The notes under the pieces are model-generated. The model did no database searches, was not told the DNA's origin, and saw only the letters and a program-made list of their open reading frames with translations. A stretch of DNA of 64,000 bases from a virus (lineage: Duplodnaviria > Caudoviricetes), in the IMG/VR virus record IMGVR_UViG_3300021254_000033, positions 1-64,000 of that record; one strand, given 5' to 3'. How positions within the stretch are numbered: position 1 is the first letter of the stretch; the number at the start of each line of letters is the position of its first letter. The position numbers and the translations under genes are program-made. Positions 47,219 to 54,127 of the stretch are shown in pieces.

Positions 47219-48327
47219 TATATCAATTTTCCTCCTACTAATTCCACTTTATTTCTTTCGTAGAATTCTTTAAATAAATTAGGATAATTTTCTGCTACAT
47301 AAAAGAAAAGAGTTTTTGCTTTTTCTTTTTTTATTACATTTTGAAATCCCGTAGTGGTTTCGGTTTTTAATAATCTACAATATCTATATAAGGCATCTGT
47401 TATATCATAATTTTGATAAAAATTATTATATGCAGAAAACAACCGAATCAAATCTACGGTTTCTTGCGTAAGTAGAAAATTATCACTAACGTCAAGTAAA
47501 ATTTTTATATGATTGTTACAACAAAAGATGACCTGCCTAAAAATTTGTAATAATTCCTCTTCTAAAAAATGGTTAGCCGTGGACGAGGACGGGTAAGGGG
47601 AATAAATTATATGTAGTCCACGAATTTCTTTTGAGTAATTTGCCAAAGCGAAAAAATCTTCATCATTTAAAATCGTTGTTATTCTAAAATTTCCATATGA
47701 TGATAATTGAATTTTTCGCCAATCTTCAAATTGTTTTAAATTTTTACAGCGAATAGGATATTTTGTTGCTAATCTAGTATTTTTATTTTCATATTTAAGA
47801 TTATAAAGTCCTTCTTCTATTACCACCCGCGCGCCTTCAACATTACTTAAATCATAATCATGTAAAAATAAAACATTTCTACTCCCCAATCTTTTTGTTT
47901 GGTCAATAAAGTATGGAGAAATATGTTTTTCATCAAGAGAAAGTCGTAGGTGTGCAGCATTTTTTAAAGTTATAAAAGCTAAAGTATTATTTTTTAATTC
48001 ATCTTCAAATAAATGTTTATACGGCAAATAAATACTAAAGTCCGCATCACAAGCCTCTATATCTTGTGCAAGAGGATGATATTTATTATAAGAAAAAGCT
48101 AAACCACCATATTGAATATTATGATATTCACTTATTTCTTTTGGAAAAGTTCCATCATAATAATCTTTTCGTAGAAAAAATTGAGAATAACGGTCAGGTG
48201 AAATAGAGGGAGATAATACCACTATCTCCCTTTTTCTTTTATAATAAGTTGCTAATTTCATTAGTTCCAAGTTTGGAATTGTTTGATGATATTTAAAAAA
48301 ATCTTCGTCATAAAGTCCGATTGACAT
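47218..48327 (-). CDS. Radical-SAM-family-like protein lacking CxxxCxxC
   Basis: N-terminal PNLELMKLATYY and GG.AF...PL..DIE...D.SIY; no cysteine triad. Confidence 0.5.
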   Translation of the reverse strand: MSIGLYDEDFFKYHQTIPNLELMKLATYYKRKREIVVLSPSISPDRYSQFFLRKDYYDGTFPKEISEYHNIQYGGLAFSYNKYHPLAQDIEACDADFSIYLPYKHLFEDELKNNTLAFITLKNAAHLRLSLDEKHISPYFIDQTKRLGSRNVLFLHDYDLSNVEGARVVIEEGLYNLKYENKNTRLATKYPIRCKNLKQFEDWRKIQLSSYGNFRITTILNDEDFFALANYSKEIRGLHIIYSPYPSSSTANHFLEEELLQIFRQVIFCCNNHIKILLDVSDNFLLTQETVDLIRLFSAYNNFYQNYDITDALYRYCRLLKTETTTGFQNVIKKEKAKTLFFYVAENYPNLFKEFYERNKVELVGGKLI

Positions 48328-51300
48328 TATTCTTCACCTGTTCTTGCATATGTTTTAATATCCCCTTCTTCTGTTACCTCAGTTATTTTTTCCACCAAAT
48401 GCCAAGGTGTCCGAGAATATTTTTTTGCCTGAAAATCATTTTCTCTTCTAATACCAGTAATAATAAGTTTATTTCCTCTTTGAAACATACTCTTTTCAAT
48501 TACGTGTTTTTTACCATCGGCTCCGCGCTCACTAATTTGTCTATCATAATAAGTGAATACAGCTCCATAAATTTTAACCGTTACAACACCTGTTTTTGTT
48601 AATAATGTGATACTTTTTCTTGATTTATCTTTATCTAATACTGTACCGATAATACGATGAATCTTAAATAAAGGAATTCTTTTTCCTTTTATATTAATAA
48701 AACGATCAACATCAGGCTCTTCACTAAGACTAAAAAAGTCTGAAAAACCATATTTCTCTTCATTCACTACCGCTAATTCATGTTCATGAGAATAATATGA
48801 AACTGAATCCATTTCCCATTTACTTAAATTACCTAAACAATATTTATCCCAGGTATCTTTCATTAAACGGCTATTAACAGCTTCCAATAATTCAGCATTA
48901 TGTTCTTTTACATAAGGACGTATAATATCCATCTGCTTTTTATAAATATTATCCCAGAACGTTTGTTTAATTTTGAATCCACTTTCTGTTTCCGCTGAAG
49001 ATTCTAAATCATCTAAATCAAAAAATTTCTCATAAAAAGATAATCCAACATTATCTATTCCATAATAAGTATTATCTAATTTTTGTTTTTTAACATATTT
49101 GTTAAAATTATAAACACGTTTTTGTAAGTCATACTCATAAGGAATTAATCCAAAATCAATTAACATCTTCATATTTTGAAGAGTTATTCTTTTCTTTTGG
49201 TCACTAATTGATGCAACGTATTTTTTCATTATCTCTTCTCTATCACCGAGAAAATCAAACGCCCCACTTTTAATTAAGTTTATAACTTGAGGCTTTGTAA
49301 TTTTTACCTTATTGGTTAAATCTTCTACTGAATTATACGGCCGCGCGCTCAGAATGTTTTTTACAACTTCATCTCCAACTTTACTAATACCACTTAATCC
49401 ATAACGAATTGTATTGTGTTCAAGGTCTGGAGAAAAAGTATAAGTTGATTTATTAATGTCCGGCGGAGCAATTTGAATTCCCGCCATTCTCATTTTTCCA
49501 ATCGCAGTGGCAATCTTTCCATAATTCGTAGTTTTTTGTTTTTTCTTTTTTACAGTTTTACTTTCTTCTTCCTCATCATCTTCGCTTTCTTCATATTCAG
49601 CTCCAAAATCAACCATTTCGTCATAACACGTCGAATCTTCAATGTACTCTTCTTCCACTACTGAATCTTCTTCTATCCCACCGCTATCACTAATTAAACA
49701 AGCACAATTCCAGAAAATTAATGGGTAACGATAAGCCAAATTCATTTCCTGAAGAGCGATTAATGAGTAAGCAAGAGTATGAGATTTATTAAATCCATAT
49801 CCTCTACTATATGCTACCAAAACTTGCCAAACATATCTACATAAATTTTTACTTAATCCTTTCTCTCTCATATTCGCATAATATTCTTCAGTTAATTTAT
49901 CATATTCTGCAGGATTCTTTTTTGCGATAGATTTACGCAATCTATCTGCCCATGTTAAATCAAATCCTCCACATTCTGGTATCTGAACAAGTGTCATAAA
50001 ACCTTCTTGACTTTCGCAAATACCATATGATAAATCTAATTCTTTATGCAGAATACTTTTTTCTTCCTCAGTTAATCCCCATTTTTCCATTTCCTCATTC
50101 CATAACTCAGGATTATTTTTAAATCTGGCAAATTTACTCAGCGGCTGCTCTGCCCCTCTTTCTTGCGCCATTAATCGAATTACAGAATTTAAAGTTGCCA
50201 AATCATCTACAGAAGATGGTTTTGCTAACGCTATCCCCTGAACTCCACTTTGCTGCTCCATTTGAAATAATGAAAAAATTTCATGATTCCAAACCATTTT
50301 CCACATATTCGGGTCATCACGCTCAAGATTATAAATACCTACTACTGATTCATATGTTTCTCTCAAAGTGGATTTGCGTTCTACTAATCCGTTATCACAT
50401 AACAAATCAAGACAAGTATGAATTTTATCCATAGCTTCAACTGATAATGCGTCATACTTAATTAAACTTACCGCTTCATCATCATGAAGATCAAAGGCTG
50501 TAATAATAGTTCCATCTGGCGACCGCATTAATCCAGTGGAATTTGTAAAAGGTTCATCAACGAAAATAACTCCACCTGCGTGCGCGCCCAGTCTATTAAC
50601 TAATCCTTCAATTTTTCGAGCTACTGTCCAAAGTTCAGGATAATTTTCTGTCATTTCAATTACAAATTGCTTAATTGGAGTGAACCCACTTTCTTTATCA
50701 CCGTACATACATTGATCCAATGTACGCACTAATCCTCTATCTGATGGAATTAAGGAAGAAATGTATGAAGCAATATCAACATCAATTCCTAATCCTCTCG
50801 CAGCAGTTAATATTGCTGACTTTGATTTTTCAGTTCCAAAGGTTGCAACATTTGATACTCTATCATTACCATATACTTCTCTAAATTTATTTAAAACAGT
50901 TGCTCTCCGCCCGCCTTCAATATCAAAATCTACATCCAATACAGATACACGATTTGGATTGAGAAAACGCCATGAAAAAGTTTTTGTTTTTTCTTTTAAA
51001 GGATTAATTTGAGTAATATCTAAAACATATAATAAAATAAAACCTACTCCAGAGCCTCTACCTGGTCCTACAATACTACCAGCATCCCAACACACGTCAA
51101 TAATATGTTGAAGATTTAAAATATAAGAAGACCAGCTTGCATTATTTACTTTTGAAGAAATTTTAATCATTTCAAGATTAGAATTAATTTCATTATATGC
51201 TTCTTCATTCTGTAAATCCGAATGTTTTTTAATTCCATCAATAATTTTATAAACCAAATAATAGTCACCTTTATCTTCTGATTTTATAAAATCATTAAAC

Positions 51301-52330
51301 ATTGGAATTTTTTGACACCATTCATTTAGCTCTTTTTCTGTAATTTCATTATCTATTTTATTCCAAGTTAAAGTCGGGATTTTTAATGATTTATTTAAAT
51401 CGTAATCTTCACAACTATCAAAAATCCCTTGGATTGTTTTATATGCTTTTTCTAATTCTTCTTTTGACAAATAAGAAAAATATTTTTCTAATTCTTCTGT
51501 ATTCATCATATAAGTTGAAGCATAAAAATCATCTACTTCTCTTTCTCCGTTTTGAGAATTGAGAAAAGCTTTATGAACAAATCTATCATCTTTTTCTAAA
51601 TAATGACTATCAGTCGTGATAATATATGGAATATCATACTCTTTTGAATGTTCAATTAACCATTTATTTACAAAGATTTGTTCTTCATTAAAACTTGGTT
51701 GCATCTCAAAAAAGAAGTTCCCGTGACCAAAAACTTCATCCATTTGAGTAATCCAAATTTTTATTTTTTCATATAACTCATTATCTTTTGTATCTCTCCA
51801 ACGTAATAATTGTGTTGGGAGCGCGCCGCCTAAACAAGCAGTTGATCCAATTACATGACCTGGGTTTGCTCCAATTATATCAATCAAATCTTGATAATAA
51901 GTTGGAACTCTTCTCATACCACGAGCCATATAACTTCTCATCCAGGCGCGAGTAGATATTTCTCTAATTTGCTGATGACCAATCGCATCTTTAGCCAACA
52001 AAATAAAATGAAAGTATCTATCTACTCCTGATACAAAATTATTATTATTAAGACCATTTCGAGTTAAATAAATCTCATTACCTAAAACAACCTTAAAATT
52101 TGGGTGTTCTTTTTTAATTTTTTTATAATAATTTAATACTTTAATTGAATTACTAATACATTCATGATCAGTAATTGCTATACCAGAATGTCCAAGTTTA
52201 ATAGCATAATCAATTAATTCATTTTCTTTTATAATACAGTCACGTAAACGAATATTACTAAATTGTGTATGGCTCCCTAATTATGAAGACTTCCGGGATA
52301 TTCTTTAATCATAGTCTTCATTATTATCAT
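48327..52330 (-). CDS. dnaE: DNA polymerase III alpha (C family); 5' end interrupted by an 8 nt insertion at about 52272-52282
   Basis: PHP motifs (SLHN / HTQFS, ITDHE, TDSHY), GRGSG, LDVDFD. The reading frame continues from 52001 to 52280 without a start codon; the upstream mini-ORF 52277-52330 is in another frame. Confidence 0.9.
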
Positions 52331-52371
52331 CACCACCTTTCTTAAACTCTTTATCATTATCTTATATAATA

Positions 52372-52400
52372 ATTATACTATAAATACAGAAAAAAATCAA
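52372..52400 (-). promoter_or_regulatory. sigmaA promoter for dnaE
   Basis: TTGATT-17-TATAAT; RBS GAAAGGTGG before ATG 52330. Confidence 0.8.
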
Positions 52401-52402
52401 GT

Positions 52403-54127
52403 TTAAAATCCAAATTTATTATCTTCTATTTGATATGCATCAATAAAAATTTGCGGAGTTTCTACTCCCATCCAACTATTTATATTGGTTCTCCCTACTA
52501 AGTTCATCTTTATTTCATCATACTGCCCCAGTTCTTCAATTAAATCTTTCGCATGAAATTTCATATATGCAATACCAAATTTAGTAATCTTTAATGTGTC
52601 AGAATTTTTACCCATAATTTGGTAATCATCCCTTGTGATATTTAAATCGTGAATAAAAATTATTGGTTCTGGAGTATCTTGTCCCCAGCATTCTTCATAT
52701 TTTCCTAAATCAAAAACTATATCCTGAATATCCTTATCTGCCGCAGAACGAACAAAATTTACTTCGTAAACCCCTTCTCCAAAATCAATATCAGCTAGCT
52801 TATTATTAGCCCACTCATGAAAATTAAATAAATCTTTATCTGGGATAGAGCATCCAAAGGCATTATCATGCCCAGCAGTATATTCAAACATTTTACTTTC
52901 GTCTAAGAAATTTTTAAAAGAATCTAAAGCACTCTGATTCAAACCTCTCGCACTTCCTCTAACATACCCTTCATCATTTAACCTGGCTACAATAGTAGGC
53001 TTTTTAAATTTTGCTGCCAGCCGCATGGCACATAATCCATTCAACTCCGCAGGAAAATCATCTTCATCTTCTAACCGAATAAAAAGAATTTTATTTTCTA
53101 ATAAATCATATTTAAATACTTTGGATTCTAATTTTACCATTGCATTATCCAATAATCTATTTTGTTTTGCTCTTGCATTGGTACACTCTCTTACACTTTC
53201 AATCGCAGCATATTCCAATGTTCCTTTTGCACCACGTTTATTGGATGGAATTTTTTTCGTACCATCAACAAAAGCCATATATAATCTTTCTTTTTCTTCC
53301 ATAGTTCCAACTCTAATCATCGCATTAATCAAGGGAACAACATAGAAAGCCACTGTAATTGGATTAACCTTTCCTCCTGTCGAATAACTTTGTTTATCTA
53401 AAACTGATTTAAAGAAGAAGTTTTTAATATTAGCTAATCCAGTTTTTGAAATATATCTATTTTCAATTTGAACCATTGAACCCATATCGCCAATGATACC
53501 TAATGCAGCTAAATCAATAAAATTATCTGCGAAATCTACTTCATATAAAGAATCTAAAACTCTGCAAAATTGATAAACCACTCCCGCGCCCGTTAAATCT
53601 TTATTTGGGTATCGTGAAGATAGTTGGTTATTTATAATTATTGCATTATCACTTAATGGAGTGTCTGTAATATGATGATCAAGAACTAAACAAGGTAGAT
53701 TAATTTCTTTTAACTGATCATGATATACCCCATCATTACTACTTGAGTCTGGGAGAATAATAAGACTATAGTTTTCTTGGTTATCTAAAATTTTATCAAT
53801 ATGGTCTTGAAGTCCATGCTGTTTATTCTCATGTAAAATATAATCAATTTCAATGGAGTTATCTATACAATGAATATACTGGTGCATAATCGCTGCAGAA
53901 GTGAAGCCATCACAATCACTATCTACCACAATTAAAATTTTTCCCTTATTTTTTATTGTGTTCATTAGTAATTCCGCGCCCCGTGTTATATTATCAAATA
54001 ATAGAGGGTCATTAAGACATTTTTTTGAAGGGGTTAGAAATTCATCTAAATCCATTACTCCTCTCGCTTTTAACAGCTCGCTTCCATAATTCTTTTGAAA
54101 GTTTTCATTTACTAATTTAATCTGCAT
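52403..54127 (-). CDS. recJ: RecJ-like DHH ssDNA exonuclease
   Basis: DSDCDG, DHH, RGSAR and AGH motifs. Confidence 0.9.
   Translation of the reverse strand: MQIKLVNENFQKNYGSELLKARGVMDLDEFLTPSKKCLNDPLLFDNITRGAELLMNTIKNKGKILIVVDSDCDGFTSAAIMHQYIHCIDNSIEIDYILHENKQHGLQDHIDKILDNQENYSLIILPDSSSNDGVYHDQLKEINLPCLVLDHHITDTPLSDNAIIINNQLSSRYPNKDLTGAGVVYQFCRVLDSLYEVDFADNFIDLAALGIIGDMGSMVQIENRYISKTGLANIKNFFFKSVLDKQSYSTGGKVNPITVAFYVVPLINAMIRVGTMEEKERLYMAFVDGTKKIPSNKRGAKGTLEYAAIESVRECTNARAKQNRLLDNAMVKLESKVFKYDLLENKILFIRLEDEDDFPAELNGLCAMRLAAKFKKPTIVARLNDEGYVRGSARGLNQSALDSFKNFLDESKMFEYTAGHDNAFGCSIPDKDLFNFHEWANNKLADIDFGEGVYEVNFVRSAADKDIQDIVFDLGKYEECWGQDTPEPIIFIHDLNITRDDYQIMGKNSDTLKITKFGIAYMKFHAKDLIEELGQYDEIKMNLVGRTNINSWMGVETPQIFIDAYQIEDNKFGF

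Follow-up and report, generated by a model that had tools for sequence, protein, structure and literature searches.

The DNA polymerase gene of an uncultured gut/rumen phage is interrupted after 14 codons by 8 nt that open with a stop codon, and we consider it probable, from the comparison of related genes, that ribosomes cross this break in dnaE by hopping 8 nt in a programmed manner. They would take off from AAU, pass over UAG-GG and land on AGC, where a GIY-YIG homing-endonuclease cassette, since lost, has left its scar. The gene lies in the first 64,000 nt of IMG/VR virus record IMGVR_UViG_3300021254_000033, the stretch analysed here and called the window; the whole viral contig (G000) has 78,585 nt and 33% GC.

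The interrupted dnaE gene

By its domains (PHP, DNA_pol3_alpha, finger and HHH_6/HhH in Pfam) and its relatives (PDB 2hpi and 3f2b; 40-43% identity to YorL and Enterocloster phage polymerases), the window gene qualifies, on sequence, as a DnaE or SPbeta YorL-type DNA polymerase III alpha. The annotated homologs, SPbeta YorL and those of Staphylococcus, Arcanobacterium, Leuconostoc and Enterocloster phages, read S-I-H-N-H-T-x-x-S-N-x-R-L-R-D. In the window a mini open reading frame (mini-ORF) on the minus strand ends ...GAA TAT CCC GGA AGT CTT CAT AAT and is followed by TAG (52279-52277), by GGAGC (52276-52272) and, from 52271, by CAT ACA CAA TTT AGT (HTQFSNIRLRD...). Since the annotated homologs begin ...S-I-H-N-H-T, it is the mini-ORF that encodes the opening His-Asn of HxH in the PHP domain, and taking out exactly TAGGGAGC (52279-52272, 8 nt) regains the family motif S-L-H-N-H-T, as an earlier note on this DNA, made from the letters alone, had recognized. 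The same note also considered removal of AATTAGGG, which would give H-S-H-T; this is not favoured because the relatives conserve H-N-H. After the break the polymerase is read in the -1 frame, open from 52271 to 48327; its PHP match starts at profile position 5, and the first 93 codons of this long frame contain no ATG, GTG or TTG. Read-through of the TAG in frame 0 meets a TAA after 15 codons, much as had been foreseen.

The earlier note placed the start of the gene at ATG 52330, behind a promoter and a Shine-Dalgarno (SD) sequence. Both of these signals stand, the promoter-like TTGATT-17-TATAAT being common to the intact relatives L088 and L008 in an alignment, but the start probably does not. 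The SD (GGTGGTGA) adjoins ATG 52330 directly and lies 9 nt ahead of ATG 52321, and the relatives have the N-terminus MKTK(I/L)EYPGSLHN. Because of this spacing and this shared N-terminus, the true start is more likely to be ATG 52321, which is also the first base of the stem described below.

The beginning of dnaE (~25 codons) was compared in 80 related IMG/VR loci (loci are given as L numbers). The same insert, which had been suggested as something to look for in related phage genes, is indeed found in relatives: an independent IMG/VR contig (L007/L087) has the identical junction and is separated from the window by single-nucleotide polymorphisms (SNPs), with 14 differences over 790 codons, ~13 of them synonymous (dN/dS 0.02), and a third lineage, L142, has the same TAGGG-AGC and a near-identical leader. 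The intact relatives read YPGS(L/C)HNHT without an insert, among them the closest one, L088 (90% identical; a buffalo-cecum contig from a metagenome-assembled genome, MAG), which reads MGITYPGSCHNHTQYSN. An exact-lineage search of metagenome contigs, allowing inserts of 0-12 nt, gave neither a further copy nor an insert-free allele. Among cultured phages the closest polymerases are only ~43% identical, and intact.

Stop-led inserts interrupt 22 of the 80 relatives, and in 20 of these 22 all of the ~790 downstream codons examined are open. In the clade called type B below, dS reaches ~0.6 with a dN/dS of 0.02. The mini-ORF sequence YPGSLHN is maintained through synonymous changes across lineages, although it is likewise part of the PHP domain in the intact genes. 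On these comparisons the break can be taken as confirmed, and would be neither an error nor a dead gene; the insert is shared rather than unique, contrary to what a pseudogene of this one genome would imply. The interrupted genes are, judging from their substitutions, under strong purifying selection.

The two exceptions to the open downstream frames were considered as further hop sites and rejected. At L033:1624, 37 codons past the gap, an in-frame TAG stands where the close relative L036 has TGG (Trp), either a single nonsense change or a sequencing error. At L031:~2710-2900 a long non-coding insertion follows the conserved dnaE motif GRGSGVG, besides the 11-nt N-terminal gap of that gene; it looks intron-like, though it has no Rfam match. 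As to hosts, L088 (JAFYNK010000012.1) and L089 (CACYDF010000051.1) are contigs binned to a Bacteroidales MAG and an Erysipelotrichaceae MAG. The Bacteroidales binning is probably wrong, since the strong SD use and low GC suit a Firmicute host better.

Stop-led inserts and their proposed landing codons

The inserts of the 22 relatives measure 5, 8, 10, 11 or 12 nt, a range that widens to 4-12 nt when metagenome junctions are added, and they occupy three or four positions in the first ~25 codons. Every insert opens with a stop (TAG, TAA or TGA) directly behind a sense codon. TAG is the first codon of 17 of the 20 distinct inserts tabulated, even though it is the rarest stop of the 78,585-nt genome (10 of the 71 frames of at least 120 codons, against 46 for TAA and 15 for TGA). 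This genome has no other candidate hop site, and dnaE is its sole long frame without a start. We sort the inserts by position: type A, that of the window, follows S-L-H-N, with AAY as take-off codon; type B follows S-L-H and is in frame (CAT TAG TTN ATT CAT); type C also follows S-L-H (CAT, stop, ..CAA); type D comes after H-N-H; and type E comes after D-(Y/F)-S (TCT, stop, then TCA, TCC or ACT).

Pattern searches in IMG/VR and in metagenome contigs, covering many samples and assemblers, enlarged type A to 59 loci, with 42 distinct junction contexts and 21 distinct combinations of take-off, gap and landing. Insert lengths are 4, 5, 7, 8, 10 and 11 nt, with both shifted frames represented, and the gap ahead of the landing triplet (1-8 nt) varies in length, sequence and frame. 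The landing triplet itself, immediately ahead of the resume codon, is AAC in 24 of the 42 junctions, AAT in 11, AGC in 6 and GAC in 1, with no other triplet found; the background frequency is 5.6% for AAY and 7.6% for AGY/GAY. AGC and GAC are the two single A-to-G changes of AAC that still pair, by way of G.U, with a GUU anticodon. This restriction to AAY, AGC and GAC therefore points to re-pairing of peptidyl-tRNA-Asn, that is, to a hop. The ribosome hop put forward by the earlier note (take-off on AAU, stop in the A site, near-cognate landing on AGC) thus draws support from the 42 junctions, together with the selection described above and the stem covariation described below.

L126, L096 and L102, the cassette relatives nearest to the window, have AAC where the window has AGC, a difference of one base, and the same AAC-to-AGC change arose separately in L036/37 relative to L033. 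In the other types take-off and landing codons are matched in a similar manner, as CAT/CAT, TCT/TCC, TCT/TCA and CAT/TAT (U.G), and a few landings, CAA and ACT, have one mismatch. An SD-like sequence also occurs in some gaps, separated by 0-2 nt from the landing site: it is GGGAG in the window, AGGTGATC in L065 and GGGTGA in L033-37. This element is missing from about half of the insert types.

Three further observations concern the gaps themselves. The 10-nt insert TAGGTGATCC of L065 (L065:1494-1503) and L068 holds, in AGGTGATC, an 8-nt match to the extended SD consensus. The type A gaps are G-rich, as in TAGGG and TAGGGTGA. Finally, the in-frame type B insert at L021:1486-1497, TAG TTG ATT CAT, includes in TTG a possible restart codon, which provides no general explanation because the sister sequences have TTT or TTA there.

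A helix upstream of the stop

In all of the interrupted genes a helix forms between the beginning of the frame (the start codon plus two or three more) and the codons just 5' of the stop. The 9-bp stem that had been noticed in the window (52283-52321) folds at -10.1 kcal/mol, with a z-score of -3.1, and it co-varies across the family. The median z-score of the helix is -3.6 in interrupted genes and -0.5 in intact ones (best of three segments; Mann-Whitney p 8e-12, ignoring kinship, all family statistics here being computed without phylogenetic correction). A second metric, 'closing pairs', did not separate interrupted from intact genes as the z-scores do, owing to the shortness of the segments. 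Where the stop is displaced, the helix is displaced with it, its 3' arm being formed by the Ser-Leu-His codons in types A-D and by the Asp-Tyr/Phe-Ser codons in type E. In types A-C it is 87.5% paired, compared with 34-51% when slid, and at least 8 of the 9 positions pair in 37 of the 42 type A upstream regions, as against 7 of 42 when these are shuffled; of the two arms, the type A search pattern had constrained the 3' one alone. In type E the helix is 91% paired, and both partners have changed in 3 of its 10 pairs: where GAT has become GAC, or TAT has become TTT, in the 3' arm, non-conserved N-terminal codons show the corresponding changes.

The endonuclease cassette and its scar

Most interrupted loci have an extra gene between recJ and dnaE that abuts the dnaE start (-8 to +6 nt). 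By Pfam it is a GIY-YIG endonuclease, in types A and B only, or an HNH endonuclease, in type E only, and neither of these families adjoins an intact gene (0/56). The GIY-YIG gene is still present in 18 of the 37 type A junctions with enough flank. In a polymerase tree, a quick IQ-TREE result, the interrupted genes are scattered among intact sisters, with at least 6 changes for type A and at least 4 for type E; on the basis of this tree, such a scattered distribution is a mobile-element pattern.

The window itself has no endonuclease homolog anywhere in its 78.6-kb genome, and its sequence around the junction is a chimera. The end of recJ and the promoter match L088 and L008, both intact; over the ~100 nt that follow, the match is to the cassette 3' end (GAGTTTAAGAAAGGTGGTGATG.TAATAATGAAGACT..., near-identical to L126); and past the insert the sequence returns to an L088-like polymerase. 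In L126 the matching segment is the last 15 codons of an intact GIY-YIG gene (Pfam). What remains of this gene in the window runs, in a different frame, across the SD and into the beginning of dnaE, and is similar to L033/35/36. With only the last ~15 GIY-YIG codons left, the window is therefore an orphan scar. By comparison, these matches show that the insert, the helix-forming leader and the SD arrived together as the 3' end of a free-standing GIY-YIG cassette between recJ and dnaE, and that the endonuclease gene was later deleted down to its last ~15 codons. By analogy with the MobA case discussed below, the insert likely breaks the endonuclease target in the conserved motif DNA while leaving the protein unchanged. 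Cultured phages have only distant relatives of the GIY-YIG gene (<36%), so that the search yielded no laboratory phage carrying the cassette.

In L039 (L039:618-1530), L048 and L062, dnaE is intact and its start is overlapped by a GIY-YIG endonuclease of another kind, which has a NUMOD1 domain. In L039 a strong helix runs from the start codon to Ser-Val-His (z -2.9) without any insert. Either this type of cassette is seen before gaining or after losing a gap, or its helix has another role.

The features of the window locus are collected in the table below. The recJ-like gene ends 72 nt upstream of dnaE and the order of the two is that of SPbeta yorK-yorL (SPBc2 annotation). A terminator-like hairpin, GGAGTAGAAACTCC with a T-run (52455-52468, minus strand), lies a short way upstream of the dnaE promoter, still within the recJ-like gene at its 3' end.

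Table. Features of the interrupted dnaE locus in the window.
Feature	Position	Strand	Basis
Upstream RecJ-like exonuclease gene	52403..54127	-	Pfam DHH and RecJ_OB
Promoter-like TTGATT-17-TATAAT	52372..52400	-	Consensus scan, 10/12
Shine-Dalgarno AAAGGTGGTGA	52330..52340	-	Sequence; element also in cassette-bearing relatives
Alternative in-frame start ATG	52330-52328	-	
Likeliest start codon ATG	52319..52321	-	9 nt from SD; relatives start MKT...
Remnant 3' end of deleted GIY-YIG gene, reads EFKKGGDDNNEDYD*	52305..52349	-	Near-identical to L126 end
Helix 5' arm ATGAAGACT (start codon and two codons)	52313..52321	-	
Helix 3' arm AGTCTTCAT (Ser-Leu-His codons), ends 3 nt ahead of stop	52283..52291	-	
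Proposed take-off codon AAT (Asn, x of HxH)	52280..52282	-	Alignment to intact relatives
Proposed coding gap TAGGG; TAG 52279-52277 in A site at take-off	52275..52279	-	
Proposed landing triplet AGC; G.U at middle position with Asn GUU anticodon	52272..52274	-	
Resume codon CAT and remaining DnaE/YorL-type polymerase (1314 codons and stop)	48327..52271	-	Open frame, Pfam

The proposed bypass and its alternatives

We propose the following course of events for the window gene. The ribosome would start at ATG 52321 and make MKTMIKEYPGSLHN, until peptidyl-tRNA-Asn on AAU (52282-52280) meets UAG in the A site. The tRNA would then leave AAU, the mRNA would slide by 8 nt, and the Asn anticodon (GUU by standard decoding) would re-pair with AGC at 52274-52272 (A-U, G.U, C-G). 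Decoding would resume at CAU 52271, giving a single polymerase chain with an intact H-N-H-T and the junction peptide EYPGSLHNHTQFSNIR. At the stop, the 3' arm of the helix would still be in the E site and the exit channel; zippering of the 9-bp helix as its bases emerge probably pulls the mRNA forward, by up to ~9 nt, which is the length of the hops. The helix would help to drive the bypass, in keeping with a proposal made for gene 60 and cited below.

Several observations weigh against this proposal. The AAY landings could partly stem from the origin of the inserts, by duplication, instead of from selection, and the landing codon of the window is the near-cognate AGC, not AAC, such that efficiency may be low. 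The association between helix and insert is in part hitch-hiking, because the helix is inherited along with the cassette; moreover, the related L039/L048 cassette (GIY-YIG with NUMOD1) has a comparable helix beside an intact gene, and for this reason the helix may serve something other than bypass. There is no conserved 3' take-off hairpin like that of T4 gene 60, and no significant 3' structure in 19 of 20 junctions. Part of the dS may be older than the insert, because homing can carry a cassette among diverged genomes.

It is perhaps relevant to the matter of 3' structure that one type E junction, L057:1440-1540 (IMGVR_UViG_3300028887_000206), has a perfect 11-bp hairpin, TCTTAAACGAA...TTCGTTTAAGA (z -4.8). 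This hairpin encloses the take-off codon and the stop, making L057 the only junction with a gene 60-like take-off hairpin.

The alternative that survives best, improbable as we judge it, is that the gap is translated, in the window by a programmed frameshift at AAU-UAG (+2 or -1) with the product SLHN-GS-HTQFS, other members requiring +1 or read-through. The junction peptide for a +2 shift would be EYPGSLHNGSHTQFSNIR. A stop in the A site is a classic stimulator of +1 frameshifting, as in prfB, and of the 21 frame-shifted junction types tabulated, 20 have no stop across the gap in the frame that a shift would use. A further point in favour of a shift, and hence against a hop, is that N, S or D before the His would be tolerable, intact genes having N, D, G or C there; such tolerance accounts only partly for the restriction of the AAY variants to G.U-compatible ones. 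The junctions have no slippery sequence, as had been remarked earlier for the window, and tRNA-Asn cannot re-pair at +1 or +2. A translated gap would place 1-4 extra residues between the metal-binding His of HxH, an arrangement seen in no intact relative, and a stop within the gap blocks such translation in L065/L068. Three type B junctions are in frame and would have to be crossed by reading through the stop. FRAMESHIFTING is a poor alternative, with +1, +2 and read-through all required within one homologous set.

Could the break be a non-functional scar, with no full-length polymerase made and replication left to another polymerase, or to a truncated product starting at TTG 52001? The contig is ~67% complete (CheckV), leaving room for a second polymerase; the landing codon, AAC in L126, L096 and L102, has decayed to AGC; and L033 bears an additional nonsense codon. 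Still, we find this quite unlikely in view of the dN/dS of 0.02 between the window and L007, both with the insert, the synonymous upkeep of the mini-ORF and the open downstream frames of nearly all the interrupted genes. No second polymerase copy exists in the 78.6 kb examined, and a start at 52001 would remove 90 residues of the PHP domain.

Removal of the 8 nt at the RNA level, by excision or editing of the mRNA (a micro-intron, or an endonuclease plus a ligase), would yield the same product as a hop, and the helix does draw the flanks of the mini-ORF together. Nevertheless, the insert is not bracketed by the helix, and we are aware of no mechanism, in bacteria or phages, by which 4-12 nt are excised. 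A first-position stop and a codon that matches the one ahead of the gap are signals of translation and would have no part in splicing, the landing rule is not predicted by excision, and the window has no Rfam match; we regard this explanation as very unlikely. The intron option of the earlier note finds no support for the same reasons, and a self-splicing group I/II intron can be rejected, as it would need a fold of hundreds of nt instead of an 8-nt insert.

An assembly or sequencing artefact, the other escape that had been left open, has a negligible probability: the source is a metagenome-assembled contig, but the identical junction recurs in an independent contig that differs by SNPs and in L142 (68% polymerase identity), the variants number in the dozens and stem from a wide range of samples and assemblers, and a non-repetitive insertion of 8 nt is not a typical read error.

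Two other readings were tried and rejected. For a suppressor tRNA or an alternative code, the window has no tRNA genes, its genes are intact under table 11, and read-through runs into the TAA already mentioned. For re-initiation past the stop, most types have no ATG, GTG, TTG or in-frame near-cognate start at or after the gap.

Relation to known bypass systems

Translational bypass in T4 gene 60 was reportedly described by Huang in 1988. The dnaE junctions resemble gene 60 and its MobA homologs in having a stop directly behind the take-off codon and a matched codon 5' of the resume codon; in having the gap in a conserved metal-binding motif of an essential replication enzyme; and in having a free-standing homing-endonuclease cassette that supplies new flanking sequence, with the endonuclease often lost and the gap kept. 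In the gene 60/MobA element, self-cleavage is prevented by the insert, and the bypass frequently outlasts the endonuclease (bioRxiv 10.1101/2022.08.31.505936, Manning & Atkins), and pairing of the exiting upstream mRNA has been proposed as the forward driver (bioRxiv 10.1101/2024.12.09.627546). Of the features of gene 60-type bypass, the dnaE junctions share the matched landing codon, the A-site stop and the upstream mRNA pairing, but not the stem-loop formed by the take-off codon and the 5' gap; the gap is too short to hold a take-off stem-loop. The skipped insert is of 4-12 nt (8 in the window) instead of 50, and where gene 60 has a 3' take-off hairpin the helix of dnaE lies 5' and includes the start codon. 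In dnaE no more than 12-18 codons precede take-off, at which point the nascent chain would not yet have emerged from the tunnel. Moreover, the host gene is dnaE/yorL and not a topoisomerase, and the endonuclease is GIY-YIG or an unrelated HNH, not the MobA-type HNH. These different endonucleases speak for an independent invention, an analog of MobA/gene 60 and not a homolog.

The terminase gene of the Streptomyces phage phiHau3 has a natural 10-nt bypass triggered by UUA (Antonov et al. 2023, PMC10732093), for which the junction peptide was found by mass spectrometry in E. coli with UAA replacing UUA (PMC10732093). It has in common with dnaE a short natural gap in a phage gene and a slow-to-decode A-site codon as trigger, and a 5' stem-loop and an SD were proposed there as stimulators. 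However, its trigger is a rare sense codon, its proposed role is regulatory, few natural variants are known, the gene and host phylum are different, and no homing-endonuclease link is described in PMC10732093. In the synthetic stop-hops of E. coli (Weiss, Dunn, Atkins & Gesteland 1987), ribosomes hop over a stop to a matched codon, at +5 and +6 (PMC5009743). The likeness is close, a peptidyl-tRNA passing a stop to a matched codon a few nt downstream, but those sites were engineered and of low efficiency, whereas the dnaE sites are natural, conserved and in an essential gene. According to a review, no natural in-frame stop-hops were known, and shorter counterparts have long been presumed (PMC5009743). 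The byps of Magnusiomyces capitatus mitochondria (Lang 2014; Nosek 2015) are hairpin-forming elements of 27-55 nt at many sites per genome (PMC5009743). Like the dnaE inserts, they are short, numerous, skipped by ribosomes within coding sequence and behave as mobile elements; in dnaE, by contrast, each genome has a single site, the gaps are much shorter and endonuclease genes are associated with them. A full-text literature search gave no paper describing bypass in dnaE.

Implications

Natural bypass systems have so far been few: T4 gene 60 with the MobA homologs, the yeast mitochondrial byps and the phiHau3 terminase candidate. To these can now be added, as probable cases, dozens of natural, selected variants in an essential polymerase gene, whose variation in gap length, frame and landing codon resembles a ready-made mutagenesis series. 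Among them the window is the orphan case, in which the endonuclease was lost while the gap, the helix and a G.U landing codon were kept. With these genes a second and a third endonuclease family would have solved the problem of self-cleavage in the way that MobA did. For the annotation of such phages there is a warning: these dnaE genes should not be taken for pseudogenes.

A wider proposal, to which we give about even chances, is that an mRNA module of ~50 nt suffices for efficient hopping by ordinary bacterial ribosomes without a 3' hairpin, and that two unrelated endonuclease families each recruited this module as a dnaE immunity scar. Its parts would be a start codon, a 9-bp helix closing onto the take-off region, UAG, a gap of 1-9 nt and a matched codon. 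If this is true, the restriction of landing-codon variation to G.U changes would amount to a mutational read-out, supplied by nature, of how the anticodon re-pairs in the P site.

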